This document shows positions 4,684 through 22,138 of a stretch of 27,057 bases of DNA, piece after piece. Every line of letters starts with the position of its first letter. Position 1 is the stretch's first letter. This stretch comes from a virus. Taxonomy: Duplodnaviria > Caudoviricetes. The translations under genes and the position numbers were made by a program. The notes under the pieces are model-generated. The model was not told the origin of the DNA. It searched no databases and saw only the letters and a program-made list of their open reading frames with translations. Location of the stretch: IMG/VR virus record IMGVR_UViG_3300021560_000710, positions 1 through 27,057 of that record; one strand, 5' to 3'.

Positions 4684-5120
4684 CAAGAATACTGGCAATC
4701 GCCGCAATTCTAACCTTGGTGGTCTGGGCGCTGACCGTGTGCATCGCAAGGGCGCAGACCAACGTGCAGGGCAATCAGCACACCACCGCAGGGACACTCG
4801 AGGGGAGCCACCAGTTCACCGGCAACAAGATGACCGGCCTCTCGGTAACGTGGCACTCGCAAGCATCCCGCTGGCTGATGATCTTCGACAGCCAGAGTCT
4901 CCCGGCCAACGGAACCTTCAACGCCCAGACCCCGCTCATCGTCTGCCAGTGGGTGCAGGGTGCAGGTAACCAGCCAGACGGCACCCTGAATTTTGACTGG
5001 AGCGCACATCCGGTCATTGTCCAGACCGGCCTGACGGTGGCGCTCAGCATCAACGCCGCCGCCTGCACGGCGCTGACCGTAGATGGGAACAACAACTGGT
5101 TTGCGGGGCAGATGCAATGA
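4680..5120 (+). CDS. Signal-peptide-bearing beta-rich protein (146 aa)
   Basis: ATGA overlap; begins MTRILAIAAILTLVVWALTVCIARA|Q; 2 Cys in the mature part. Confidence 0.7.
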   Translation: MTRILAIAAILTLVVWALTVCIARAQTNVQGNQHTTAGTLEGSHQFTGNKMTGLSVTWHSQASRWLMIFDSQSLPANGTFNAQTPLIVCQWVQGAGNQPDGTLNFDWSAHPVIVQTGLTVALSINAAACTALTVDGNNNWFAGQMQ

Positions 5121-7003
5121 CCGGAGCGCTGCTGGTCCTCCTGCTCTTTTTTTTCTGCGGGAACGCTCGCGCCCAGATCGTCACGCCGATCTCGGCAGCC
5201 CCCGCTCAGGCTGCGGTGAACGTGCCAAACGGCACCCCTCCGCAAGTTCTGGGCTGGTCAGCTCCAAACACCCCCGAAGCCGAGACAATCGTCGGTGATA
5301 TGACCCTCTCCCGCACTGGGGTGAACCAGTACACCGCCACCGTGCTGACGCTCAGCGGCACCCCGGTCGGCAACCTTGCGACCCTGAATGTCGGCTCGGG
5401 CTTCTCGACCGTGGGCGGGAGCCTCAACCTCTCCGTGCCCATTCCTGTGACCAGTGGTGGAGCTGGTTCGAGCACTGCTGCCAGCACGGGGGCCATCCGC
5501 ATCGCCCAGTCGGCGACCGATTATGAGCCGAAGATTTTGAGCGGGGACGCCACCGTTTCGGTGGCAGGAGTCGTGTCGGTGACCAAGGTCGCCGGGAACA
5601 CTCCCGGTGGTTCCTGCTCCGCGAATAACTACGTCACTTCAATCGACTCCAGTGGAAGACCGACTTGCAGCCCCGTCTCGGGGAACGGGATGCCCAACGG
5701 CAATACGCCTCAGATCGTTGGCTATTCGGGCATCAATACCGGCGAGGCGTGGACGGTGAGCGGTGGAGCGGGGAACTGCACATATGCCAGAACCGGGGCC
5801 AACGCCGCCACCCTGACGTGCTCCGGGTATGCCCCCTTGGCCTCACCGACCTTCACCGGCACGGTGACGATGCCGGATGCCGGGACGTGGACGAGCAGCG
5901 GCATTACCAGCACCGCTGCGACCTTCTCGGGGAATGTCGGGGCGGCGACGGTCAATGCGGCCAACTTCCAGATAAACAGCGGCACCGGCTCGCTCAAGGC
6001 CGCGAACGGAGCCATCTACTATCAGCCGGGATATTCGCTCCCTACCTACCCCGCGACTTGGGATATCAACGGACTGAACAATTTCGAGGGGCTGGGCATC
6101 GGGCAAGCGGTTGGGACAGACCCCATCGACATCACCGACAACATCGCCGGTCCCTCGTGGATCTATGCGCTGAATAACAACGCTGCTGGCACGGCGCTGG
6201 CCGGGGTGAAGTTGTCGAACGGAACCAACGCCGCATCATTCGCAATGATGGGAACGAGTGCCTCTAATCCGGAGGGTGGCGCCAACACGGCGGTACTCCA
6301 TTCCGATCAGGGCCTCAACCTTGCCGCGAATACTGGTCAACCCATCAAGTTTGAAATCAACGGCACCGTGGTGGGGAACTTCGCGGCCAACGGTCTGCAC
6401 CTGACCACGCCGCTTGAGGTTTACAGCGGCGGCACCGGCACTGCGACGGCACCCGCACAGAACCAGATCCTCGTCGCCCAGTCCGCGACTGCATACGCGC
6501 CGGTAACTCTCGCGGGCGATCTGAGTATCACGAGCACCGGCACGGCGACTGTAAACAAGATTCAGGGCTATCCCACCGGGACAGCCATCGCATGGACTCC
6601 GTATTTTGCGAACATCGGCACCGGGACCGCGATAACGGCCACCTACACCACGCAGGATGGCTTCTACGTTCAGATCGGGAAAATTGTCATCTGGACGATA
6701 CATTTGATGTGGTCGAGTTTTAGCGGTGGCAGTGGCAATACGGTGATCAGGGGATTCCCGCTCACGCTGGCGAGTGCTGGGGGTACGATGCCGGGGATAT
6801 CAGGGGCGGCGACCTATGGAGGCATCACATACTCAAGCGGCACGGGTGGCATCCCCGGCATGACAGAACTCGCCTGCCAGATGTCGGGCAACATGATCAT
6901 CTTGGGGGCCAGCGGCAGCGGTCAGGCGGGCAATCTCTCTCTCTCGTACAGCAATTTCGGGAACACGGGCGCGATCTATTGCTCAGGGATAGGTTCACTG
7001 TGA
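5117..7003 (+). CDS. Tail-fibre-like protein 1 with signal peptide (628 aa)
   Basis: Begins MTGALLVLLLFFFCGNARA|Q; fibre motifs YAPLASPTFTGT and PLEVYSGGTG; C-terminal WTP...YTTQDGFYVQIGK...GFP head domain. Confidence 0.8.
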   Translation: MTGALLVLLLFFFCGNARAQIVTPISAAPAQAAVNVPNGTPPQVLGWSAPNTPEAETIVGDMTLSRTGVNQYTATVLTLSGTPVGNLATLNVGSGFSTVGGSLNLSVPIPVTSGGAGSSTAASTGAIRIAQSATDYEPKILSGDATVSVAGVVSVTKVAGNTPGGSCSANNYVTSIDSSGRPTCSPVSGNGMPNGNTPQIVGYSGINTGEAWTVSGGAGNCTYARTGANAATLTCSGYAPLASPTFTGTVTMPDAGTWTSSGITSTAATFSGNVGAATVNAANFQINSGTGSLKAANGAIYYQPGYSLPTYPATWDINGLNNFEGLGIGQAVGTDPIDITDNIAGPSWIYALNNNAAGTALAGVKLSNGTNAASFAMMGTSASNPEGGANTAVLHSDQGLNLAANTGQPIKFEINGTVVGNFAANGLHLTTPLEVYSGGTGTATAPAQNQILVAQSATAYAPVTLAGDLSITSTGTATVNKIQGYPTGTAIAWTPYFANIGTGTAITATYTTQDGFYVQIGKIVIWTIHLMWSSFSGGSGNTVIRGFPLTLASAGGTMPGISGAATYGGITYSSGTGGIPGMTELACQMSGNMIILGASGSGQAGNLSLSYSNFGNTGAIYCSGIGSL

Positions 7004-9654
7004 TCAAGCGACTGATTCTATTTTTGCTGATACTCGGCTACTCCCCGGTTGTCTTCGCGCAGATCGTCACTCCCGGCGGGGGCAACACTGGAGCTGGTCA
7101 GATTACTGGCGGTTCCTGCACGGGTGGGCAATTCCAGAACGGGATGAATACCAACGGCACGCCCCAGTGCGCGACCGTCACGGGCGGCTCGGGCTACCCT
7201 CCCGGTGCCCCAGCGCAGATAGGCGGGTTCGCGGCGACCAACACGTCAGAGGCAGAAACCGTTGGAGGAGATGCGACCTACACGCGAGCGTCAGCGAACA
7301 ACTACACCCTCACGGTGACCAAGACCAACGGCTCGCTGCTCACGGGCATGGCGACTGCGGCGATCCCCTTGAGCATCCTCAATGGCGGCACGGGGATCAC
7401 GACCGCCCCGAGCGCCGGTCAACTACTCATCGGCCAGACCGCGACGACCTATGGACCAAAGACACTCTCAGGAGACGCGACCATCAACTCGTCAGGCGTC
7501 ATCTCAGTGGCGACGGTGGCTGGGGTTGCGCCGGGGCCACTTTACAGCGTGGCGTCTCCACTTCCGGTTGCGAATGGCGGAACTGGACTCAACACCGCAA
7601 CCGCAGCAGGCGACATTCCGGTCGCGCAGACTGCGACCAGCTACCTGATGAAGGCTCTCAGCGGTGACGCAACCATGACGCTGGCCGGGGTTGTGACGGT
7701 CACCAAGATCAACGGGATCACCCCCGGCGGTGTCTGTGGAGGTGGTCAATTCGCCTCGACGATTTCGAGTTCAGGAGTGCCGACTTGCACCACGCCGGGG
7801 GCTTCGGTTCCTGCCGGAACGCTGCCGCAGTTTGTTGGCTATGCGGGCGTGAACACGGGTGAGGCAGAAACACTTTCTGGTGATGCAACCCTGACTCGGG
7901 CCTCGGCGGGCAGCTACACCATCGCGGTCACCAAGACTGGGGGTGTTGCGTTCACTGGCCTAGCGACTGCTGCTATCCCGCTTTCAATTGCCAATGGTGG
8001 TCTGGGCAACACCACCGCTCCGTCTGCGGGCATGATCGATATTGCCCAGTCCGCAACCCTGATCCAGCCCAAGGCACTTTCCGGCGATGCGACCATAACC
8101 AGCGCTGGCGCGATCACCGTAACCAAGACGAACGGCACCGCATTCGGTGCGGCGGCGACTCTGGGAGTCGGTACGAATCTGGCCTCCAGCGGCGGTAACA
8201 TCAACCTCGCCTCGCCGGTCAACAATCTCACCACCAGCGGCACATTGACTTTCCCTGACGGAGCAACAGCCATCGCGCAGGGTCTTTCCAATTTGACTCA
8301 CCTCGCCGTTGGGGCCGCAACCCCCAACGGTGCGTTCAAGGCTGGGCAAGCCGATGCACTAGCCGTCTACAGCCCCGGTGGTACGAGCTTCAGCGCTGGT
8401 CTTGGGGGAGTCTTCGACGGTTGGCTCAGCACCGCCAGCCCGCCGGTCGCGGGAGGCAATATCACTTGGGGCATGTACAACAACGGCACCAATTGGCTCG
8501 CCACTGCCAAGAACATCGATCACATGGCGGTCAACACGGGTGAGATCGGCTGGTTCATGTACGAGAACCAGACGGTGGGGTCAGCGCCCACTAGCTATGT
8601 TCAATACATGGCCCTGCGCGACTCCAGTGCGGGCAGCGGACAGGGACTGTTTCTCACCCAAGGTCAGTTCATTGCCACCAGCGCCAGCGGCGGGACGGGA
8701 GCGGGCGGGCTGTGTATCGGCTGCACTTCCGCATCCACTGACGACATCACCGTCAACGAGAATTTCAACGGTGGAGCGCGCATAGTCACCCAGAACTCCA
8801 GTCACGGGACAAGCTCGCAGGCGCTGGTCAGCGTAATAAACGACAACGGCGTGATAGGCGGGTTCGGAGTCACTGGACATAGCTCTACGTTTGGCGGTTC
8901 CTACCCACCGGACACGGTTTACTGGAACGGCTCTGGCACCAACACCCTGAACATGGCGATTGCTGCGGGCGGGGCTATCCCCAACGGGCAAATTTCTATC
9001 TGGCCCTCCGGTTACGGAGCGTCAGCATTTCTGGTCCGTGCCAACCAGTTTGAGGGCTTGTCCGTATGCGGGTACGCAGGGATGTTTTGTACTGCGAATG
9101 TCGCCGGTCTGGGCGTGGGCAATAGCTATTTATCGGCGCAGACCTTCGCCAACCTAAATATCAGTGGCGGTGCCTACTTCAACGACGGCACGGGGCAGTG
9201 GGTTACAGACGGCGGCGCGGGCAATGGAGTTGGACTAGCTTCGCAAGTCGCTAGTGGTTGGTCGTTCTACACCAGTCCGGGTGGTGCGGCGGGGGTAAAC
9301 GTAGCGTGGACGCGACAAGGACTTTACGACGGCAACGGCTTTCACGTCACTAATATTATGACGGACGGTGGTTCTGCCGCCCCCACCTTTACCAATTGCG
9401 GGCCAATGGCCGGGAGCAGAGATTCCTTCGGCTATTGTAACGTCTCGGCTTGGCCGATCACGATAACCTTCTCTCGCCCGTTCAGCAGCGGCGTCAATAT
9501 AGGCTGTGTTGCAAACGGCGGGGCGGGATCATCGGGACTGCTCTACACCCTCAACCAGAACAATGGCAGCATCCAAATCGGTTGTGTCAACTATGCTGGT
9601 GGTCCCGTGTGCGGTGGGATGTGGATTCAATATATGTGTTTCGGAGTGGGGTGA
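7000..9654 (+). CDS. Tail-fibre-like protein 2 with signal peptide (884 aa)
   Basis: Start reassigned to GTG 7000 (GTGA overlap): MIKRLILFLLILGYSPVVFA|Q. Repeated PLSI.NGG.G and LSGDAT motifs; Cys-rich C-terminal domain. Confidence 0.8.
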   Translation: MIKRLILFLLILGYSPVVFAQIVTPGGGNTGAGQITGGSCTGGQFQNGMNTNGTPQCATVTGGSGYPPGAPAQIGGFAATNTSEAETVGGDATYTRASANNYTLTVTKTNGSLLTGMATAAIPLSILNGGTGITTAPSAGQLLIGQTATTYGPKTLSGDATINSSGVISVATVAGVAPGPLYSVASPLPVANGGTGLNTATAAGDIPVAQTATSYLMKALSGDATMTLAGVVTVTKINGITPGGVCGGGQFASTISSSGVPTCTTPGASVPAGTLPQFVGYAGVNTGEAETLSGDATLTRASAGSYTIAVTKTGGVAFTGLATAAIPLSIANGGLGNTTAPSAGMIDIAQSATLIQPKALSGDATITSAGAITVTKTNGTAFGAAATLGVGTNLASSGGNINLASPVNNLTTSGTLTFPDGATAIAQGLSNLTHLAVGAATPNGAFKAGQADALAVYSPGGTSFSAGLGGVFDGWLSTASPPVAGGNITWGMYNNGTNWLATAKNIDHMAVNTGEIGWFMYENQTVGSAPTSYVQYMALRDSSAGSGQGLFLTQGQFIATSASGGTGAGGLCIGCTSASTDDITVNENFNGGARIVTQNSSHGTSSQALVSVINDNGVIGGFGVTGHSSTFGGSYPPDTVYWNGSGTNTLNMAIAAGGAIPNGQISIWPSGYGASAFLVRANQFEGLSVCGYAGMFCTANVAGLGVGNSYLSAQTFANLNISGGAYFNDGTGQWVTDGGAGNGVGLASQVASGWSFYTSPGGAAGVNVAWTRQGLYDGNGFHVTNIMTDGGSAAPTFTNCGPMAGSRDSFGYCNVSAWPITITFSRPFSSGVNIGCVANGGAGSSGLLYTLNQNNGSIQIGCVNYAGGPVCGGMWIQYMCFGVG

Positions 9655-9890
9655 TGAGAATACTCATCTTGCTGGGAGTGTGCCTGTTGCTGGCTGGGCT
9701 GGCGTATGCCCAATTGCAGTCGCAACCTCTGGCAGTGCCGGGGCAGAAGTCGAGCAGCAATATGCCGATTATGGCCTCGCCCTATCCGACTATCACCCCC
9801 AGCCCCGTGCCAACCCCACCACCACCGGGATGGGAGCGGGCTAATCCACCAATGTCCGGTCCCTCGCCGTGGGGTACGCCTGTACCATGA
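9654..9890 (+). CDS. Small Pro/Thr-rich secreted protein (78 aa)
   Basis: Start ATG 9654 (TGATG coupling, GGAG RBS): MRILILLGVCLLLAGLAYA|Q. Confidence 0.7.
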   Translation: MRILILLGVCLLLAGLAYAQLQSQPLAVPGQKSSSNMPIMASPYPTITPSPVPTPPPPGWERANPPMSGPSPWGTPVP

Positions 9891-11191
9891 GGAAGCTATT
9901 TGCACTGCTGGCGTTCCTGCTCTGGCCGACCCTGAGCTGGGGCGCGGGCTGCACCATCACGGGACAGGTCTTTAATCCGGACGGTACACCCTTGGTGAAC
10001 GGGACCGTCCAGTTCAACTCCATCGTCCAGCAGACCCTGCAGGGCAACGTCACCATTCCGCCGACCCAGATCTCCACCACCACCGACTCGACCGGGACCA
10101 TGAAGCCCATCTCCATCGTGCAGGGCCTTCAGGGTCAGTTCGTCTTTTGCTCCCCGGCCCAAGGCGGCTGCGGGAACCCGACCCCGGTCCTCATCCCGGT
10201 CGCCTCGACCGCCAACATCTCGGCCATCCTCATCGGCATCCAGCTCTCGAGCGGCGGCAACGTCGTTGCCAGCTCTTTAAACGTGACCGGGAACTCCACC
10301 ATGGGTGGAACCCTAACCGTGACCGGCCAAACGTCTCTGGGGGCACTTACGGCCTCGGGAGCCACTATCCTGCAGAGCACCTTGGCGGTCACCGGAGCCG
10401 CAGGCTTCTCGACCATCACCGCCAGTGGGACTTCTACCCTTGCCGGGGTGACGGCCAGCTCGCTCAATGTCTCCGGAGCCAGTTCGCTGACCACTCTGGG
10501 GGTTACCGGGGCGACCACGCTGGCCGGGGCGACGGCCACCTCCCTGACCGTCAGCGGGCCGGGACAGTTCACCAGCCTCGGAATCGGAGCTGCCCCGGTC
10601 TGGTCGCTGGACGTTCAGGTCAACCAGAACGCGGCCACCAAGGCCCATGTCCTGAATAACAGCTCGGGCACCGGAGCTGCCTCGATGCTCGAGGCCGACA
10701 ACGGGGGCTGCGTGACGGATGTCGGGGTCTTCGGGACCGGAGCCACCCCGAGCGGGTCGCCCTTCTATGTGGCCAACCGCAACTTCCTGTTGGGTGGATG
10801 CGGCCCCGGCCTCCTGATTCAGGCCTCCGGGCCCAGCTCGATGCTCTACCTGTCGGCCCCCAACGGCAACAACGTGGACGTCTTGGGGAATAACCACTTC
10901 GGCATTTCCCGCAATGGCGTGGGTCCGGGCCCCACCGTCAGCGCATGCGGGACCAGTCCCAGCGTGACCGGCACCTCAACCGACAATGCCGGAATCGTCA
11001 CCGTGGGCAGCAGCGTCTCCAACTGCACCATCACCTTTGCCGCAGGCTTTCCGAATATCCCGGCCTGCACCTGTTCCACCGTAAACATCGGGACGTGGTG
11101 CGTGGCCAACCCGAGCACCAGCGGACTCAGCCTGACCTTCGGCACGGCTATAACTGGCAATGCCAGTTGGGTATGTATGGCCCTATTATGA
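9887..11191 (+). CDS. Tail-fibre-like protein 3 with signal peptide (434 aa)
   Basis: Start ATG 9887 (ATGA): MRKLFALLAFLLWPTLSWG|A. ITGQVFNPDGTP N-domain resembling lambda Stf-type fibre N-termini; L.VTG.T.L beta-helix-like repeats. Confidence 0.8.
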   Translation: MRKLFALLAFLLWPTLSWGAGCTITGQVFNPDGTPLVNGTVQFNSIVQQTLQGNVTIPPTQISTTTDSTGTMKPISIVQGLQGQFVFCSPAQGGCGNPTPVLIPVASTANISAILIGIQLSSGGNVVASSLNVTGNSTMGGTLTVTGQTSLGALTASGATILQSTLAVTGAAGFSTITASGTSTLAGVTASSLNVSGASSLTTLGVTGATTLAGATATSLTVSGPGQFTSLGIGAAPVWSLDVQVNQNAATKAHVLNNSSGTGAASMLEADNGGCVTDVGVFGTGATPSGSPFYVANRNFLLGGCGPGLLIQASGPSSMLYLSAPNGNNVDVLGNNHFGISRNGVGPGPTVSACGTSPSVTGTSTDNAGIVTVGSSVSNCTITFAAGFPNIPACTCSTVNIGTWCVANPSTSGLSLTFGTAITGNASWVCMALL

Positions 11192-11439
11192 AAACTCTCG
11201 CCCTAGTTCTCTGGATACTCTGCTCTGCAGTCGCGGCCTATGCGCAGGCTGCTCCACCCCAGATTCAGCAGCCACCCACGGCGGCAGACCTCGAGCAGCA
11301 GCTCGAGGCGGTCGGTTGCAAGGCCGAGCGGCAGGCGGCAGCGAGCACCATCGTGCAGCTTCAGAAGCAGAACCAAGATCTCCAGAAGCAGATCACCGCG
11401 AAGGATCCGCCACCCAAGTCGGGAGCAACCAAGCATTGA
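11188..11439 (+). CDS. Small secreted coiled-coil protein (83 aa)
   Basis: Start ATG 11188 (ATGA): MKTLALVLWILCSAVAAYA|Q; heptad pattern IVQLQKQNQDLQKQI. Confidence 0.7.
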   Translation: MKTLALVLWILCSAVAAYAQAAPPQIQQPPTAADLEQQLEAVGCKAERQAAASTIVQLQKQNQDLQKQITAKDPPPKSGATKH

Positions 11440-13505
11440 AGAGCTGGCTCTGGATTCCGCTGGCGTTCTTGTTGATGGGGCAGGCCACGCCCACGGCCAC
11501 CCCCACCCCGACTGGACCCACGATGTGCAGCGTCACCGGGAGCGTCGTCAACGCCGACGGAAGCCCGTTCGTCAACGGTGTCATTACCTTCAATAGCAAG
11601 AACATTCAGGTCATCAACGGAGTCCCGGTAAACCCGACCAACGTCACCACCAACACCGACGCCAGCGGGGTTATCCGGGCTATCTCGCTCCCGCAGGGCC
11701 TCGTGGTGCAGGTGACGGTGTGCCCCCCGGCGCAAGGTCAGGGTCAGCCCGCGAACTGCTCGGCCCCGTTCTCGGCCTTCATCCCGTTCAGCACGAGCGC
11801 CAGCTTCGGCAACTTGTCGCAGGGCACCTCGCTGTCGCCGCCCAACCCTCCCGGCTCTGCACCGCAACTCATCGGCTATAACGCCAGCAACGCGGTGACC
11901 GCAGCGACCCTTGGAGGCGACATCAGCCTCGCTGGGATTGCCCCGACGTATACGGCCACCGTGCTCAAGCTCAACGGCCAGACCCCCGGCGGGGCGTGCC
12001 CTGCCAATCAGTTCACGAGTGCAATCTCAACAAGCGGAGTGCCCACTTGTTCCGCGCCTGCGGGGAGTAGCATACCGACCGGACCCTTTCAGACCCTGCA
12101 ATCTAACGCATCGAATGCGTCGGTGTGGAATAGCAACATCGCCATTGGTATGCCCGTGGCGACCCCCACCGCTGGGCAGAACACTGCGCTCCAGATCGCG
12201 TCTGCTGGGTCTACTACATGGGCGGGAACCTCTTACACCAACAACGGCGGCGTCAATAACCAAGCAAATGCATGGGGCGTGAAGAACCCGCCGCTGACAT
12301 CAGGCACCGGCCTTTATGCAGCGTATTACGCCAATTACTGCGACCCCGCACTGGGGAACGCTTGCACAGGCCCCAACGATTTCTACATGGTGATGCAGGC
12401 CAACGGGGCGGGATCGACCATAGCGACACCGTTGTCGGCAGAGCTTCAGACCGTCGCTCCCGCCGGTTTGCAGATCAACAATCTCGCTGCCAACAGCAAG
12501 CTGAGTATATACAGTGGGGGTTTGATCACAATCACCCCCAGCGGTGGGGCGCAACTGGCACAGTGGCGCACGGGCGGGTTGGACATCGGCAGCACCACGG
12601 TCGGGGCTGATGCGATAGATGTGACCGGGGCCGGATCATCTGAACTCATTTACGTTAAAAACACCGGCACCAGCACCACTGGTCAGGCCGGATTCGGCGC
12701 GACCAATAATGTCAGCGGCGTTAACCTCTGGCTCAATCAAACCGGCCCCAATTACACAGGCAGCACCGTGGGACCGAATACCGGCTACCTGTACGCGGAT
12801 CGCGGGCTGGCGCTGCTTTCCGGCCAGAACGACGGCTCGCCCATAACCATGTGGGTCGCAGGCGCCAAGATGGGAACTCTGAGCAACACGGGCGGGTACG
12901 ATGAACTGATGTTCACTGGTGGCGGAATAAATTCCGGCGCGATGCCCAACATGAACTACGTCGCCGGGGCGCACGTCAACGCCGCTGGGAGCTGGCTGGC
13001 GGATGCGACCAGCGCGAATATCATCAATGAGTACAGCGCGACCATCGGGTTCTATGCAGACACAGGCCTCACTGCGGCCAGCACCTTTTCGCCAACCCTG
13101 CGAGCAAAAATTGATTCCGCTTGGAATGAAGTCACTTTCACTCCAGTGCTTTCGTTCGGTGGGGGCAGTGTGGGCATCGTCTACACGAGTCAGGGTGGAG
13201 AGTGCTGGAGTTTTTCAAGATTCGCCTACTGCGAAGGTGTAGTCACTCTTTCCAGCAAGGGAACCTCCACAGGTAACGTCAAAATCTGCAATCTGCCCCT
13301 TATTCCCAGTGGCGCTGGCTGGATGGGTGGAACGGTGAATTACTTCTACGGATTCACCGGCTTCTTGGGTACGCCGACGTTAATAACCAACAGCGATGGT
13401 TGCGTACAAGTCGGTCAGGGCAATCCGAATGGGTTCGTCGCTGCTACTGATGCCAACTTTACGGCCACCTCAAACTTCCAGTTTTCAGTCTACTTCGTTC
13501 AATGA
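11436..13505 (+). CDS. Tail-fibre-like protein 4 with signal peptide (689 aa)
   Basis: Start reassigned to TTG 11436 (TTGA overlap, GGGAG upstream): MKSWLWIPLAFLLMG|QATPTATPTPT. N-domain paralogous to fibre 3; C-domain (FTPVLSFGG...YTSQGG...NLP) paralogous to fibre 1. Confidence 0.8.
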   Translation: MKSWLWIPLAFLLMGQATPTATPTPTGPTMCSVTGSVVNADGSPFVNGVITFNSKNIQVINGVPVNPTNVTTNTDASGVIRAISLPQGLVVQVTVCPPAQGQGQPANCSAPFSAFIPFSTSASFGNLSQGTSLSPPNPPGSAPQLIGYNASNAVTAATLGGDISLAGIAPTYTATVLKLNGQTPGGACPANQFTSAISTSGVPTCSAPAGSSIPTGPFQTLQSNASNASVWNSNIAIGMPVATPTAGQNTALQIASAGSTTWAGTSYTNNGGVNNQANAWGVKNPPLTSGTGLYAAYYANYCDPALGNACTGPNDFYMVMQANGAGSTIATPLSAELQTVAPAGLQINNLAANSKLSIYSGGLITITPSGGAQLAQWRTGGLDIGSTTVGADAIDVTGAGSSELIYVKNTGTSTTGQAGFGATNNVSGVNLWLNQTGPNYTGSTVGPNTGYLYADRGLALLSGQNDGSPITMWVAGAKMGTLSNTGGYDELMFTGGGINSGAMPNMNYVAGAHVNAAGSWLADATSANIINEYSATIGFYADTGLTAASTFSPTLRAKIDSAWNEVTFTPVLSFGGGSVGIVYTSQGGECWSFSRFAYCEGVVTLSSKGTSTGNVKICNLPLIPSGAGWMGGTVNYFYGFTGFLGTPTLITNSDGCVQVGQGNPNGFVAATDANFTATSNFQFSVYFVQ

Positions 13506-17315: not shown

Positions 17316-18335
17316 CTATCGCTTGCGCTCCTTCGCGGCCTTCGCGATGTCGTCCATGATCCTCGGAAGGTCCGAGATCTTCACTTGGTCCGACGACTCC
17401 ACCCCGGCGTACTTCTTGAGGACTTCGGGAATCTGCCGTACCGGCCAGCCCGAGTTGACGATGAGAGACGTAAGAGTGTCCTGCTCAGCCAGATCAAGAA
17501 ACCGGACTTCCTCAGGCTCTGGCTCTGCCTCCTTGTCCTCGAAGCCGGGGATCTGCTCTGCGGCCCCGCCCAGTGTCGTGGCGTTGGGTGCGGGCCCGTG
17601 CCCGTTGCTCTTGCCGTTGCCCGCCACGTCGTAGTTGTCATTGTCCCGTTCGCGGGTCTGGTTGTACTGCTCGAGCGCCTGCGGAGTCGCATGGGTGCGG
17701 TCGCCCTGCAGGCGTTTACAAAGCCGCCGGATGGCCGACTTCTTAATCATCTCACCCTCGAACTGGCCCCACGCCGGGGAGAGCTTGCCCTGCCCGCCGC
17801 GCGCCTGAATCCGCATGGCCGCGCCCTTGATGGCGTTGATGTCCTTCATCTCGAGGATCTCCCACTCCCAGATTTCAGGCACCGTCGAGATGAGCGCGGT
17901 CGCATACGCGCCGACCAGCGGGCCCCGGTCGCCGAAATACTTGGGGTGATGCTCGAGCTTGTGCTCGGTCCCGGCATGGACGACGAGGCCCTCGCCCCGC
18001 GTGTCGTTCTGGTAGACCAGCTCGGCGAAGATCATGATCGCGGCCTTCGCATCGACGGCCCGCTTGATCATCCCGGTGTAGCCGACCTGAAAGGTCAGCT
18101 TGTTGCTGTAGGGAATCAGGAACGCGTAGTGGTCCGGGGTGCCCAGCTCGAGCTGGCAGGAGGCTGCGTCGATGATGCACTGGATGCGCGACTCCATGGA
18201 GCAGGTCGGGTACTTCGAGACTTCGTTGATGGCCAGACCGATGAACCGCTTCTTGTCCTTGGGGTCCATCGCCAGCAATTCCTCTACGGCGCTGCGGCGC
18301 GCCTCGAACAGGGTCATAAATTGGTCGTTAGGCAC
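17316..18335 (-). CDS. recT: RecT/Redbeta-family single-strand annealing protein
   Basis: AFLIPY, FQVGYTGMI, AELVYQND, VGAYA and W..F..EM.KKSAIRRLCK.L motifs; AAGGAGG RBS. Confidence 0.9.
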   Translation of the reverse strand: MPNDQFMTLFEARRSAVEELLAMDPKDKKRFIGLAINEVSKYPTCSMESRIQCIIDAASCQLELGTPDHYAFLIPYSNKLTFQVGYTGMIKRAVDAKAAIMIFAELVYQNDTRGEGLVVHAGTEHKLEHHPKYFGDRGPLVGAYATALISTVPEIWEWEILEMKDINAIKGAAMRIQARGGQGKLSPAWGQFEGEMIKKSAIRRLCKRLQGDRTHATPQALEQYNQTRERDNDNYDVAGNGKSNGHGPAPNATTLGGAAEQIPGFEDKEAEPEPEEVRFLDLAEQDTLTSLIVNSGWPVRQIPEVLKKYAGVESSDQVKISDLPRIMDDIAKAAKERKR

Positions 18336-18560
18336 TTAACTTGCCCTCCTTTGTTCTAGGCCTTCTTCTAAAAGTATTCGGACCAAGCTGGTCATCGGGC
18401 GCCGTTCGCGCTCGGCCTGCAGACGGAGCTTGGCCAGCGTCACGAGGTCAATGCGCAAGTTGAAGACCTCCGTCGCTGGTGCGCGTTGTCGGCGGTTGAG
18501 GCCCCGGCGAACAACTCTGGGGATTTTCAGCCTGCGTGGCCGTTTCGATTTCTTCATCAC
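18336..18560 (-). CDS. Ribbon-helix-helix (Arc/CopG-like) regulator
   Basis: VFNLRID....AKLR..AERERR.M..LVR.LLEEGL. Start at GTG 18560 or ATG 18557 rather than 18695. Confidence 0.75.
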   Translation of the reverse strand: MMKKSKRPRRLKIPRVVRRGLNRRQRAPATEVFNLRIDLVTLAKLRLQAERERRPMTSLVRILLEEGLEQRRAS

Positions 18561-18567
18561 TGCGCTT

Positions 18568-18596
18568 ACCTTATTGAAATACGGTTCCGTAGTCAA
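18568..18596 (-). promoter_or_regulatory. Sigma70-like promoter for the recombination operon
   Basis: TTGACT-17 nt-TAAGGT on the minus strand; the palindrome TACGG-TT-CCGTA (18580-18591) overlaps the spacer. Confidence 0.55.
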
Positions 18597-18647
18597 GTGG
18601 CTATCATCCCACGGATGTGGGTTGCCAACGACTATCCACAGGGGCCC

Positions 18648-18675
18648 TTGACGGGTCAATCGTTTGGAGTAGGAT
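18648..18675 (+). promoter_or_regulatory. Sigma70-like promoter for the replication operon
   Basis: TTGACG-16 nt-TAGGAT; the -35 box is half of the palindrome TTGAC-GG-GTCAA. Confidence 0.45.
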
Positions 18676-18739
18676 CCGCGAGCGCCGCAAAACATACGAC
18701 TGCCGTAATAACGTCCGGAAGGGGAGCTGGTGTGGTGCT

Positions 18740-20182
18740 ATGTCCATCGCTGACGAGGCCAGAGATGCGGCTCGGAAATTCCTCCTCGACAGGGTCAATC
18801 AATACAAGAACAGTCAGAAAAAGGCTCGGGTAGCTCAGGCGGAAGAGCAGCGGACTTTTAAACCGCCGGTCGCGGGTTCAACTCCCGCCCCGAGCACCAA
18901 CGGTAACGGGCACGTCAACGGCAAGCGGCTCTTGAGCCCCATGGACATCTGGAAGGTCCGGATGGCCAAGGTTATCGAGGTCGATTGCGAAAAAGCCGGG
19001 AACCTGACCTTCCTCGGCACCGACCCCGAAAGACTTATCGACAGCTCCACCAGTTATGCACTGAGCGTCATCGAGCAGACCGGCCTGATGCCCCCGGAAC
19101 CCACCGACCTCCAGCTCGAGGTGCGCAACATCGCCTCCGGGGTCGTGCAAGGGTTTATCGACAAGTACGCGCTGACCAACGGCAACGGCCACCATCCCCC
19201 CGTCAACATCGACCCCGAACTGGTCTTGAAGCCCCTCGATCTGGGGGCGCTTTATGCCATCTATGCGGAGTGGCAAAAAGTGCCTTGGGTGTGGCAAGGG
19301 ATCCTGCCCCACGGGAGTCTGTCGTTGCTCGTGGGCAAGAGCGAGTCGGGCAAGAGCACGCTCGTCTATGCCCTCATCTACGCGATCATCAAGGGGCTGA
19401 ATTTTTTCGGACGCGAATGTGAGCGGGGCCGCGTCCTCTATCTGGCGGGCGATCCGGCTTCTGAGTACGTTGCGGCCCAGACTTTCCAAGCACTGGGCCT
19501 CGAAGAGCACGAAGGCATCCTCACCCTGCGTGGTGCTCTGGTCGGCAATCCCCATGCGTGGGCCCAACTCCGTCAGATCGTCGCAGACTTCCGGCCAACG
19601 CTCATCGTGCTCGACACGCTCGGTGCGGCGGTTGACCTCGACACCGAAAAGTACGCGCAGGCTTTGCGCTCCCAGCAGCCACTGACCCAGCTCGCCCGCG
19701 ACTTCAACCCCAACATCCTGTCCCTGCACCACTCCCAGAAGCAGGCCATGGAGGCCTACAACGTAGTGGATGCGGCGCTCGGGTCAGTCGGGGTGGCGGC
19801 GGTGGCATCCACCCGGATGGTGACCCGGACTTACCGCCGGGGACGTCAGACCTTCCATACTTTCGAGATGTCCAACCTCAGGATCGGCCAGCCGCTCGAG
19901 GGCGAGTGGATTCTGGTCAAGCTCGACAACGGCCTCATGGAACTGGGCAGTCTATGGTCCGAACGAGAGGGCAACCTCATCGAGGAAGCCATCCTCAAGG
20001 TCGTAGCCGACAGCGATGCGCCGGTCACCCAGACCGATATCAAGGACCGTATCGGTTTGAAGATGAGCCGGGGTCTGCTAGGTAAGAAGCTATCGGAATT
20101 GGTACGCGACCAGAAACTCAAACGGACTACCGCCGGGGTTAAAAGATACTCACCGCCAGACCCCCAAGAAGACCCGAGTTAA
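18740..20182 (+). CDS. AAA_25/RepA-like replicative helicase
   Basis: Walker A GKSESGKS, VLYLAGD, Walker B LIVLDT and LHH motifs; wHTH-like C-terminus. Start uncertain (ATG 18740 after GGGGAG; alternative ATG 18941). Confidence 0.85.
   Translation: MSIADEARDAARKFLLDRVNQYKNSQKKARVAQAEEQRTFKPPVAGSTPAPSTNGNGHVNGKRLLSPMDIWKVRMAKVIEVDCEKAGNLTFLGTDPERLIDSSTSYALSVIEQTGLMPPEPTDLQLEVRNIASGVVQGFIDKYALTNGNGHHPPVNIDPELVLKPLDLGALYAIYAEWQKVPWVWQGILPHGSLSLLVGKSESGKSTLVYALIYAIIKGLNFFGRECERGRVLYLAGDPASEYVAAQTFQALGLEEHEGILTLRGALVGNPHAWAQLRQIVADFRPTLIVLDTLGAAVDLDTEKYAQALRSQQPLTQLARDFNPNILSLHHSQKQAMEAYNVVDAALGSVGVAAVASTRMVTRTYRRGRQTFHTFEMSNLRIGQPLEGEWILVKLDNGLMELGSLWSEREGNLIEEAILKVVADSDAPVTQTDIKDRIGLKMSRGLLGKKLSELVRDQKLKRTTAGVKRYSPPDPQEDPS
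18824..18899 (+). tRNA. tRNA-Lys (anticodon UUU)
   Basis: 76-nt cloverleaf: acceptor GCTCGGG/CCCGAGC, D stem GCTC/GAGC, loop CT-TTT-AA, T arm GCGGG-TTCAACT-CCCGC, discriminator A, encoded CCA; one A31-A39 mismatch. Confidence 0.85.
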
Positions 20183-20265
20183 AACAGCTCAGCTAATGGA
20201 AAGAAATTTTCGGGACCATACGGGGAAAACGCAATTTTTGATCTCCGAAAGGAGGCCTTCGTCGG

Positions 20266-20595
20266 ATGAGTGAATCTAATGGAAAAGTGGCCTTGCTGAG
20301 GAAAGGTTGGTGGGTCACGGTGACGGTCAAGCCGGGGGTGTTTCCGCTGCGCGCTTACTGCGGTGAAATTCAAGCGATAGACGAACGGGGATTCAGGATG
20401 ACATTGGTCGATTGGTTCACCGGATATCCGGTGGGCTGGGATATCTCGGTGCCATGGGACCAGTTCGAGGGTGCTCTCGTCTGTACCGACCAGCACGATA
20501 AAAAGGGCTTCGGCGAACCCGCAGGGCAATGGCAGGAGGGCGTTCTCGAGCAGCGCAGCACCAAGCCCGTTGAACACAAGAAGACGACCGGATGA
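20266..20595 (+). CDS. Hypothetical protein (109 aa)
   Basis: AAGGAGG RBS; ATGA coupling to the next gene. Confidence 0.7.
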   Translation: MSESNGKVALLRKGWWVTVTVKPGVFPLRAYCGEIQAIDERGFRMTLVDWFTGYPVGWDISVPWDQFEGALVCTDQHDKKGFGEPAGQWQEGVLEQRSTKPVEHKKTTG

Positions 20596-20977: not shown

Positions 20978-21336
20978 TGGGCCGACACTATGACACATAC
21001 CCAGTCCTGCCGGGGTTCAAGCGCCACGGCACCTCGGAGGAAGCGGCCCACTCGATGATCCCCGAGCTGTCCTTCCTGCGCGGCGAATGCCTCAAGGCCA
21101 TCGCGGCGCTGGATTCGACTGCCGACGAGGTGGCTACCGTGGTCGGGCGCACGGTCTTGGCTATCAGGCCGCGCATCACTGAACTCAACAAGCTCGAGCT
21201 GATCTATGACTCTGGTTTGCGCCGGAAGAACGACAGCGGGCGCAACGCAATAGTGTGGCGCTGGTCGGGCATAGCGGTGCCCGTCAATATCGAGGAAAAA
21301 GAAGAAGTGAGGAGGAAGAGAAATGGCCAGACGTGA
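20977..21336 (+). CDS. Conserved phage winged-HTH protein
   Basis: ATG 20977 (TGATG); TSEEAA, T.DEVA, IRPR.TEL, DSG.RR...SGR.A.VW motifs. Confidence 0.75.
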   Translation: MGRHYDTYPVLPGFKRHGTSEEAAHSMIPELSFLRGECLKAIAALDSTADEVATVVGRTVLAIRPRITELNKLELIYDSGLRRKNDSGRNAIVWRWSGIAVPVNIEEKEEVRRKRNGQT

Positions 21337-22138
21337 TGACGAGAACGACGTAACCGTAGAGGCGGTGACCCTAGAACCGGAGCCTCAGACCGCCAACCCC
21401 ATCACCATCTCCGGGGCCGCGCTGCTAGGCGACACCGTGCAGATAAGCGGGCTGACGCTCACCGGCACCACTGACTACTCGACCGGCACCAGTGGCGGCG
21501 GCGGGGGTGGAGGCACCACCACCGACACGGGTGGGTCCGAGCCTTGGGCGTGGAACCAGCTGTATCTGGATCCGGCGGGCTACGCGGGCAGGACGGTCAA
21601 CGCGGGGCAGAGCACTTGGCTTCCGATTGCCAGCGGCAAGTGGCCACCGGGGTACAAGGTGCCCGACAATCACACCAAAGGCGGGGTGAGCCCTTCGGGC
21701 ACGAGCGACGGCACCAAGCCCATCATAATCCAGCCGCCTCCGAAGGGCGTGGGACGGCTCAAGTTCTATAGTGCGTTCAAGCTCTTGGTAGTCAACAACA
21801 GCTCCAACAAGGGCTCTTACACCTGTTATATCGGAACGTACTATTCCAATGGGCCTTCCAAGCCACTTTACCCGTACTTGGGAGTAGCTCATGACGCCGG
21901 GAGCCTGTCCCCGGCCACTATCGGTGGCGGCGAGTCGCAGATGGTTCACGTTCACCGGCTGGATATTTGCGACAACTCATTCCAGTCAGACCAGCCTATA
22001 AGTGGCTGGCCGCAGTGGGAGATGTTGCTGCACACCTCGGGCACGATGATGTATCCCGGCTTGCAGCTCTCGATAGAGAACCGGGGGTCGGTGGCCCTGA
22101 CCATAAAGAATATTTTCGGCTTCGGCTTCGTGTGTTGA
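21323..22138 (+). CDS. Hypothetical protein (271 aa) with a poly-Gly linker and beta-rich domain
   Basis: GAGGA RBS; overlaps the upstream gene by 14 nt. Confidence 0.7.
   Translation: MARRDDENDVTVEAVTLEPEPQTANPITISGAALLGDTVQISGLTLTGTTDYSTGTSGGGGGGGTTTDTGGSEPWAWNQLYLDPAGYAGRTVNAGQSTWLPIASGKWPPGYKVPDNHTKGGVSPSGTSDGTKPIIIQPPPKGVGRLKFYSAFKLLVVNNSSNKGSYTCYIGTYYSNGPSKPLYPYLGVAHDAGSLSPATIGGGESQMVHVHRLDICDNSFQSDQPISGWPQWEMLLHTSGTMMYPGLQLSIENRGSVALTIKNIFGFGFVC

Follow-up and report, generated by a model that had tools for sequence, protein, structure and literature searches.

A tRNA-Lys(UUU) gene nested in the frame of a putative phage helicase gene, in the place of a protein linker

The window, a virus record of 27,057 bases (about 60% G+C), carries a complete tRNA-Lys(UUU) gene that lies, as a whole and on the coding strand, inside the stop-free frame of a helicase-family gene. 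From the N-terminal homology of relatives, the start signals and the codon usage, we conclude with high confidence that the helicase gene is read through the tRNA from ATG 18740. Comparison with relatives supports the view that the tRNA has taken the place of a protein linker that varies freely elsewhere. Our best reading, in which our trust is modest, is that one transcript yields either the helicase or the tRNA; given read-through, a tRNA that is processed and useful is reasonably probable. Feature coordinates are collected in Table 1.

Table 1. Features of the nested tRNA region, with coordinates in the window and the basis of each assignment.
Feature	Position	Strand	Basis
Divergent small gene, RHH/Arc-like	18336..18557	-	Weak matches: RHH_5 E 0.0013 (below its cut-off), Arc-like PHROG E 0.0099
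Overlapping divergent promoter-like site, leftward arm (RHH-like gene, RecT, Cro-like gene, exonuclease)	18631..18659	-	9/12 consensus
Sigma-70-like promoter TTGACG-16-TAGGAT (putative)	18648..18675	+	Consensus match 9/12
Shine-Dalgarno-like stretch (GAAGGGGAG...GGTG) before ATG 18740	18719..18732	+	Duplex with generic anti-SD
480-codon AAA_25 (RepA-like helicase family) gene	18740..20182	+	Pfam PF13481, PHROG primase/helicase families
28-codon N-terminal segment ending in Lys-Lys, also A-rich tRNA leader	18740..18823	+	Homology to L003 N-terminus
tRNA-Lys(UUU) gene, A73 and encoded CCA, also protein codons 29-53	18824..18899	+	ARAGORN, Rfam
Anticodon loop and top of stem, A31·A39 mismatch	18854..18864	+	Sequence; AriB comparison
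Linker continuation (T-N-G-N-G-H ... N-G-K-R-L-L-S-P)	18896..18940	+	Repeat, NG motif of relatives, BLASTP, GC3
Conserved middle domain, begins at internal Met (M-D-x-W-K)	18941..19171	+	L003: 51/76 residues identical
AAA_25 ATPase domain with Walker A (GKSESGKST)	19268..19747	+	Pfam PF13481, invariant columns

The first-pass annotation had described a 76-nt cloverleaf with CCA on the same strand inside an open ORF; the open frame, Rfam and ARAGORN, the last a check that it had proposed, all bear this out. The only tRNA that ARAGORN reports for the window is tRNA-Lys(TTT), at 18824-18899 on the plus strand. Rfam model RF00005 matches 18824-18896 at full length (model positions 1-71 of 71) with 65.5 bits against a gathering score of 29 (E 2.3e-12). 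The anticodon TTT is at 18857-18859, the discriminator A73 at 18896 and the encoded CCA at 18897-18899, and the positions that are invariant in tRNAs (U8, A14, G18-G19, U33, T-loop TTC, A58 and CCA) are all present. Twenty of the 21 stem pairs are intact. The sole exception, which leaves the anticodon stem short of its five pairs, is the mismatch between A31 (18854) and A39 (18862) that had already been pointed out. The minimum-energy fold is the cloverleaf (z -2.41; 5 of 200 shuffles were equally good). Within the unmodified mRNA, the acceptor and T stems, which are what RNase P reads, pair with a probability of 0.90-0.99, the D stem with only 0.28 and the anticodon stem with 0.40; an A-rich 5' leader (18740..18823) precedes the tRNA. 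The UUU anticodon and A73 are described as the identity set of class II LysRS in the available part of PMC9976931, and both U34-U35-U36 and A73 are found here, with C2-G71 where class I LysRS substrates have G2-U71. No case can be made for codon compensation, AAA accounting for 32 of 183 lysine codons across 19 genes and for 8 of 26 in the helicase gene.

The protein matches PF13481 over residues 177-336 (81.1 bits against a cut-off of 27). It has both Walker A and Walker B motifs, and G204, K205 and D292 are invariant in 45 sequences; helicase activity is a prediction from this family membership. It shares this ATPase domain with RepA-like phage primase/helicases of the AAA_25 family. These relatives fuse the domain to Prim-Pol, Toprim-like or DnaB N-terminal domains, whereas no primase domain is present here. 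The closest annotated phage proteins are 25-27% identical, in the ATPase part, and a PDB sequence search with the protein returned no match at E 0.01. The middle domain is 58-73% identical to those of P0002, P0049, P0050 and P0053 and has no Pfam match, hence no family name. Together with the short N-terminal segment, which from its composition is probably a helix, it matches no known family; no usable Atlas match was obtained for residues 1-150, and no shorter homologs of these residues were found at E 1 among 50 candidates.

No stop interrupts the plus-strand frame between GTG 18617 and its end at 20182, and the tRNA contains stops in both other plus-strand frames. Its in-frame translation is exactly that given by the first-pass annotation. 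An open frame through a tRNA-Lys gene is not rare: 26 of 53 distinct viral A39 tRNA-Lys genes have no stop in the corresponding frame, and among 107 distinct viral tRNA-Lys matches there are 5 whose frame stays open for at least 25 codons before and at least 60 after. The weight of the finding lies in protein homology on both sides of the tRNA. In favour of read-through, an unselected insertion would be in frame and stop-free in about 6.5% of cases (1/3 times the mean of 26, 5 and 0 of 53).

A metagenome scan recovered four related loci besides that of the window itself, representing three independent lineages. Two of them, L003 and L004, are a near-identical pair from the same phage group as the window, with neighbouring genes 81%, 55% and 36% identical to window genes. 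In the L003 protein an N-terminal segment of 22 residues is followed by a proline-rich linker of 27 and then by the middle domain. The window protein has the same middle domain, preceded by 24 residues of segment and 43 of linker, the 25 tRNA codons being among the latter. Downstream of the tRNA, the two proteins share 67% identity by BLASTP. Upstream, where BLASTP alone reports no homology, the N-terminal segments align without gaps in the same frame (BLOSUM62 score 36, p=0.00025 in 20,000 shuffles; 8 of 20 residues identical), a score reached by none of 1280 25-residue tiles from other fetched proteins. The other two frames do not align with the L003 N-terminus (p 0.44 and 0.27), nor does the DNA upstream of the ATG. 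Nucleotide identity in this segment is 0.55, 0.60 and 0.20 at codon positions 1, 2 and 3, the pattern of selection on the protein. L003 and L004 differ at 11 positions over 195 codons, all synonymous, three of them in the N-terminal segment or linker. The upstream homology comes from this one lineage (L003/L004); the N-termini of P0049, P0033 and P0047 show no significant similarity (p 0.81, 0.22 and 0.53) and share only their short length and the proline-rich linker that follows. A search of representatives added one true relative, P0054. No relatives were found in viral contigs with the queries protein, A1, A3 and A5, or in a GTDB scan with A1. The matching parts of two further proteins, P0056 and P0057, are tRNA-like peptides.

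Gene callers disagree about the start: P0001 (JGI) is called from TTG 18932, and P0058 (Logan/ENA), an identical 480-aa protein, from ATG 18740. Judged from the start signals and relatives, translation very probably begins at 18740, upstream of the tRNA. Among four candidate starts it alone has a Shine-Dalgarno match, with a duplex energy of -7.9 or -8.2 kcal/mol at a spacer of 13 or 8, against -2.1 kcal/mol at TTG 18932 and -1.9 kcal/mol at ATG 18941; the anti-SD motif is one that we take to be generic, and it may not be that of the host. The spacer is long. The first-pass annotation had noted 28 protein-like codons following a GGGGAG, and this hexamer lies at 18721-18726, 13 nt before the ATG, with the homology to L003 upholding the protein-like character of the codons. 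The L003 start also has a Shine-Dalgarno sequence, and the L003 equivalent of Met 18941 has none. In frame, codon usage resembles that of genes on either side of the tRNA (+0.22 bits per codon ahead of it, +0.34 behind it) and does not do so upstream of 18740 (-0.37 bits per codon). The homolog alignment that had been suggested for choosing between 18740 and 18941 thus comes out for 18740.

Alternatively, the tRNA could be an ordinary gene upstream of a protein whose translation begins at TTG 18932 or at ATG 18941, in which case the N-terminal codons would be a relic leader and the open frame a leftover or chance. P0001 is called from 18932 and P0002 and P0005 are called as short forms, and, as given above, half of viral tRNA-Lys genes are stop-free in frame and a few (5/107) sit in long open frames. 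Both downstream codons, however, lack a Shine-Dalgarno sequence and are base-paired (mean unpaired 0.25-0.28), conservation reaches upstream of both, and every relative with DNA has an open N-terminal extension. In P0049, P0054 and all four related loci for which there is DNA, the methionine at 18941 is internal, which speaks against a start at 18941 or later, the condition on which the nested arrangement was to have been given up. Short gene calls among AAA_25 relatives may themselves be truncations, since P0021 (424 aa) has a cluster mate of 481 aa, P0059. We regard the upstream-gene explanation as quite unlikely. Several JGI gene calls in this set are truncated.

Between the tRNA and the middle domain the linker continues. 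With its four final bases, ACCA, the tRNA opens the TNG linker motif of the family. Sixteen of 18 nucleotides of the linker continuation are repeated at 19175-19192, where they code for the same peptide; the N-terminal part of relatives contains NG in 47 of 52 cases and [TS]NG in 29 of 52; the BLASTP alignment with P0049 begins at N60, ahead of Met68; and the GC3 of the continuation is 0.93. Linkers of the AAA_25 family vary freely in length and sequence. Polar and small residues make up 88% of the tRNA-coded peptide, compared with 93% of the L003 linker, and from this composition the window linker is expected to be disordered. Measured against L003, the protein is lengthened by 16 aa. The idea of a tRNA captured as a protein linker, raised in the first-pass annotation, agrees with this alignment to L003, in which the tRNA fills the linker slot.

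The tRNA itself is found in none of the four related loci with DNA, a count that leaves out the DNA upstream of P0049 and of P0002, the closest relative; Rfam reports no tRNA in L002-L005 at E 10, and conservation of the cloverleaf in relatives, on which the first-pass annotation had made its reading partly depend, is not supported. A regular-expression test found no tRNA-like peptide in the fetched helicase-family relatives. Since there is also no supported relic, the tRNA is most simply seen as a lineage-specific gain. The L003 linker was considered as a decayed tRNA and rejected: its score of 40 gave p 0.027 to 0.089 under three nulls, with no profile match, 61 of 1622 background windows scored as well, and p was 0.02-0.03 against 60 other tRNA-Lys genes. 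Comparison establishes the linker replacement, while the order of events and the mechanism at the junction are proposed as follows. The ancestral protein would have been built like those of L003/L004 and P0049, its short N-terminal segment connected to the middle domain by some 27 residues of proline-rich linker. Part of this linker would then have given way to a tRNA-Lys gene, joined by its ACCA end to the TNG motif, a junction that places the tRNA in the frame most often stop-free for tRNA-Lys.

The left side of the record carries capsid, adaptor and other virion genes, and the right side a divergent early region, with RusA, an exonuclease, a Cro-like gene, RecT and the RHH-like gene on the leftward arm and the AAA_25 gene plus small genes on the rightward arm. 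The helicase/tRNA transcript likely comes from the putative promoter at 18648-18675. L003 has TTGACG-17-TAGAGT at the corresponding place, with the same TTGACG hexamer, and also has the divergent promoter-like site; a small gene stands at the matching place in L003 and gives no BLASTP alignment with the RHH-like gene of the window. An assembly chimera or a chance cloverleaf might in principle explain the arrangement, which comes from one sample only, and tRNAs of other organisms in run X1 (a soil metagenome, perhaps the source of the window DNA) partly match the stretch. Speaking against a chimera, a second assembly of run X1, not an independent sample, yielded a contig that agrees letter for letter over 17500-20500 (0 differences, 0 gaps). 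The E value of 2.3e-12 also counts against these explanations, as do the frame and the homologous flanks kept on both sides, and we give them hardly any credence.

Processing and charging of the tRNA, its competition with translation and its nuclease resistance are what we infer from these features. On the best reading, one early transcript from the promoter at 18648-18675 would meet one of two exclusive fates. Ribosomes starting at 18740 would melt the cloverleaf and produce the 480-aa protein, whose linker is longer and of low complexity. On ribosome-free transcripts, the acceptor and T stems would fold, RNase P would cut at 18824 and trimming would proceed to the CCA at 18899. Processing would release tRNA-Lys and leave a 28-codon 5' piece without a stop; little helicase would be expected from the 3' piece, because its first start codons are base-paired and have no Shine-Dalgarno sequence. 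A tRNA that acts as a processing switch limiting helicase is plausible. The likeliest benefit would be an early supply of tRNA-Lys(UUU) with A39, which should escape tRNA-cutting defences of the AriB type.

A39 is the informative feature of the anticodon arm. In E. coli tRNA-Lys, the change U39A alone abolishes cleavage by the PARIS nuclease AriB in vitro (PMC12409363, as excerpted), and the resistant tRNA-Lys of phage T5 reads U36AAACC41 in the available parts of PMC12409363 and PMC11464382. Positions 36-41 of the window tRNA are likewise U-A-A-A-C-C. Among these letters only A39 is informative, because C41 is also common in cellular GC-rich arms. The window tRNA has the A39 of the T5 type (18862) and lacks its compensating U31, position 31 (18854) being A. 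By analogy, resistance of such an A39 tRNA-Lys to AriB-type cleavage is plausible. The first-pass annotation had linked tRNA-Lys(UUU) to the anticodon nuclease PrrC: the link to a nuclease that targets this tRNA is retained, with PARIS AriB as the better name since U39A abolishes AriB cleavage; the available portions of PMC10264068 and PMC11555353 contain no statement on an effect of A39 on PrrC.

The combination of A31 with A39 is very rare. It occurs in none of 107 distinct viral tRNA-Lys matches, five of which have A39, and U31 accompanies A39 in 51 of 54 distinct viral tRNA-Lys among the matches listed. IMG/VR gave one match, in coding DNA, and no real tRNA with the pair; GTDB gave seven in 185,579 genomes, about four of them tRNA-like (two called by ARAGORN, two more that look tRNA-derived). 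In three of the four carrying genomes the A31·A39 copy is the sole pattern match, a weak indication given that the assemblies are incomplete. Within one phylum, leaving aside the centre genome, which had been picked for its A39, none of 300 sampled cellular genomes had A39, and A31-U39 was present in 194 of 301. A single change separates the arm from the phage U31-A39 type, and a single change also separates it from cellular GCGGA/UCCG arms, so that an escape mutation and decay look alike, and the uncompensated mismatch could be decay. Derivation from the phage type was for the same reason not adopted.

These observations bear on a simpler explanation, in which the captured tRNA is read from 18740 as a linker only, a recent passenger whose RNA is unselected, with A31·A39 as a first step of decay and any processing as a cost. 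The tRNA is a singleton among the related loci (0/4), its mismatch is hardly ever seen in the tRNA-Lys of viruses or cells, and its peptide, at 88% polar or small residues against 93% in L003, has the composition of a linker in a family whose linkers are free in length and sequence. Set against this, all other pairs and the invariant bases are intact, though among the fetched tRNA-Lys genes the nearest scores no more than 57 in an alignment over 73 bases. The closest annotated phage tRNAs have only 74-86% identity. When five random synonymous changes are made, at least 20 pairs survive only 5.4% of the time; a recent arrival would account for the intact cloverleaf equally well. The single broken pair, moreover, hits the one position known for AriB resistance, and A31·A39 copies that are the sole pattern match (3/4 genomes, incomplete and hence weak) also speak against decay. 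We consider it less probable than not, though a serious contender, that the tRNA is a linker and nothing else.

A more elaborate possibility is a defence-triggered switch, in which depletion of tRNA-Lys by a nuclease such as PARIS AriB or PrrC frees the nested tRNA. Ribosomes would halt in the helicase leader, at its lysine codons 13 and 23, the downstream cloverleaf would be left free, RNase P would release the cleavage-resistant A39 tRNA-Lys at the expense of the helicase mRNA, and replication would resume once lysine decoding had been restored. We find this improbable. The AAA AAG codons just before the tRNA, reported in the first-pass annotation, are indeed at 18818-18823. They are weak evidence for feedback, and a special meaning for them is not supported, since L003, which lacks the tRNA, likewise carries four lysines among its 22 N-terminal residues. 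Ribosomes halted at codons 27-28 would be expected to mask the 5' strand of the tRNA, a consideration that goes against the switch.

Preference for the either-or transcript also has to be weighed against a role in lysogeny, in which the tRNA is or contains an attP core and integration splits the helicase from its promoter, or in which the tRNA replaces a host tRNA-Lys destroyed by integration (tRNA-dependent lysogeny). The window holds an excisionase-like HTH_17 gene and a Cro-like gene, and the contig is partial. An attP inside a coding region is known (PMC4982277, in the part available), and mycobacteriophage Fionnbharth is described as using a tRNA-Lys-TTT that overlaps a protein gene for tRNA-dependent lysogeny (PMC10865867, as excerpted). 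Such a split would resemble what happens in integration-dependent immunity, where the attP lies within the repressor gene. No integrase was found among the window proteins scanned, which cover part of the ORFs of this partial contig, an attP core does not need a whole tRNA, and a lysogen would be expected to keep silent any promoter that also drives a replication gene. Among 15 records of run X1, only the phage contig itself is 99% alike and none falls at 95-99%, a comparison that would miss a core of about 10 bp. The attP relic suggested in the first-pass annotation thus gains no support from an integrase or from a near-identical second tRNA, and we judge either form of the lysogeny explanation very unlikely.

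The closest known arrangement is that of Alphaproteobacteria in which selC, the gene for tRNA-Sec, lies within the selB ORF (Mukai 2021, PMC8124441). In the available part of that account, a whole same-strand tRNA lies inside an ORF, as here, and an either-or outcome is proposed in which processing leaves a stop-less mRNA; in both cases this outcome is predicted from sequence only. The differences are that selC encodes a C-terminal extension of the protein rather than an internal linker near the N-terminus, that it is the partner of the protein in which it lies, whereas the gene here is a functionally unrelated phage replication gene, and that the selC/selB arrangement is conserved across many species, compared with a single occurrence here. 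The same account mentions a tRNA-Lys wholly within cox1 in direct orientation, as in the window, in the mitochondria of Armadillidium vulgare, though that tRNA is a truncated one of 60 nt in a compact animal organelle genome.

Among phages, the tRNA-Lys-TTT of Fionnbharth overlaps gene 37, whose relatives are without the tRNA, the same situation as here, and the protein is lengthened by 18 aa, compared with 16 aa in the window relative to L003 (PMC10865867, as excerpted). Its function is demonstrated, with a role in lysogeny, in contrast to the window, where no integrase was seen among the proteins scanned. It lies on the opposite strand with its own promoter and at gene 37's 3' end, unlike the same-strand tRNA here, so that the two products do not compete for one transcript. 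The tRNA-Lys(UUU) of T5 has the same isotype, A39 and the same letters at 36-41. According to the available parts of PMC11464382 and PMC12409363, its change is a swapped pair, whereas A39 here faces A31, its gene sits in a tRNA cluster rather than inside a helicase-family gene, and its AriB resistance also depends on distal positions. In the literature on nested and overlapping phage tRNAs, of which our coverage is incomplete, we found no case of a tRNA lying on the coding strand within a phage protein gene.

To annotation pipelines a stretch is either a tRNA gene or a protein gene, and at this tRNA one caller cut the protein by 64 residues and another called the whole gene. If both products are made, the gene would be a compact test of whether tRNA processing and translation compete for one bacterial transcript, a competition that, in the available part of PMC8124441, is proposed for selB/selC from sequence only. 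The arrangement also suggests a simple route by which phages may gain tRNAs, namely in-frame replacement of a flexible linker behind an existing early promoter. The uncompensated A39 would allow a direct test of whether escape from a nuclease costs a pair of the anticodon stem. Should the defence-switch reading be true, this one gene would by itself close a feedback loop between tRNA-targeting immunity and the replication of phage DNA.

The middle domain of the helicase-family gene is 58-73% identical among its relatives, comprising four related loci that lack the tRNA (L002-L005) and three related proteins (P0049, P0053 and P0054), and carries no family name. The ATPase domains of these same relatives share only about 27-33% identity with the ATPase domain of the window gene. 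This pairing of a conserved middle domain with a divergent ATPase indicates, at the level of sequence, that these relatives keep the N-terminal part and exchange the ATPase module that follows it. In other relatives the N-terminus is swapped instead, and is Cys-rich, Prim-Pol, Toprim-like or DnaB-N. Throughout the window gene's family, Walker A is followed by the motif YLAGDPxSE, whose Gly stands where the syntenic relative L003 (AASDDE) and P0049 (LASEDE) have acidic residues. RepA-type helicases have their catalytic Glu at the place taken by this Gly in the putative ATPase subfamily of the window.

Positions of features in the window and related loci
Feature	Sequence	Position	Remarks
Four consecutive long Gly/Thr/Ala-rich ORFs	window	5117-13505	628, 891, 440 and 781 aa; shared-looking repeats
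Hairpin directly 3' of tRNA	window	18900-18990	z -2.88
Middle domain	window	18941-19171	
YLAGDPxSE motif	window	19430-19470	residues 232-242
271-aa protein	window	21323-22138	
271-aa protein counterpart	L003	3257-4057	
Leader with two predicted hairpins	L003	875-985	z -1.35
tRNA and tmRNA set	L134	230-1642	

Among the genes compared between the window phage and the L003 phage, that for a 271-aa protein has the highest identity (81% over 201 residues); it had no Pfam or PHROG match, and a scan of viral contigs returned no relatives. The four Gly/Thr/Ala-rich ORFs, also lacking a PHROG match, are probably tail fibre or virion proteins.

Pair 31-39 is diverse in viral tRNA-Lys(UUU): the 107 distinct matches in the viral sample L135-L254 comprise A-U (59), G-C (21), C-G (20), U-A (5) and other (2). 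Cellular A31·A39 copies are rare (L127, L131, L132 and L133, in the incomplete assemblies G001-G004); such a copy is the sole pattern match in three of the four genomes, and in G003 it occurs in addition to an otherwise identical U39 copy. In two viral contigs, L053 and L118, the frame of an HNH-like ORF (in L053, 140 codons long) stays open upstream through a U31-A39 tRNA-Lys(UUU) and for 19-31 codons before it, which may be ordinary read-through or a further nested tRNA. Separately, the large viral contig L134 encodes both types of tRNA-Lys together with a tmRNA and two tRNAs whose anticodon is CUA, a set that suggests amber recoding or suppression.

In L003 the 5' leader is longer and is predicted to form two hairpins; it had no Rfam match. 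The stable hairpin predicted next to the window tRNA (2 of 200 shuffles were as good) covers both candidate downstream starts (TTG 18932, ATG 18941). If the tRNA is processed out, this hairpin may keep the remaining 3' piece silent.
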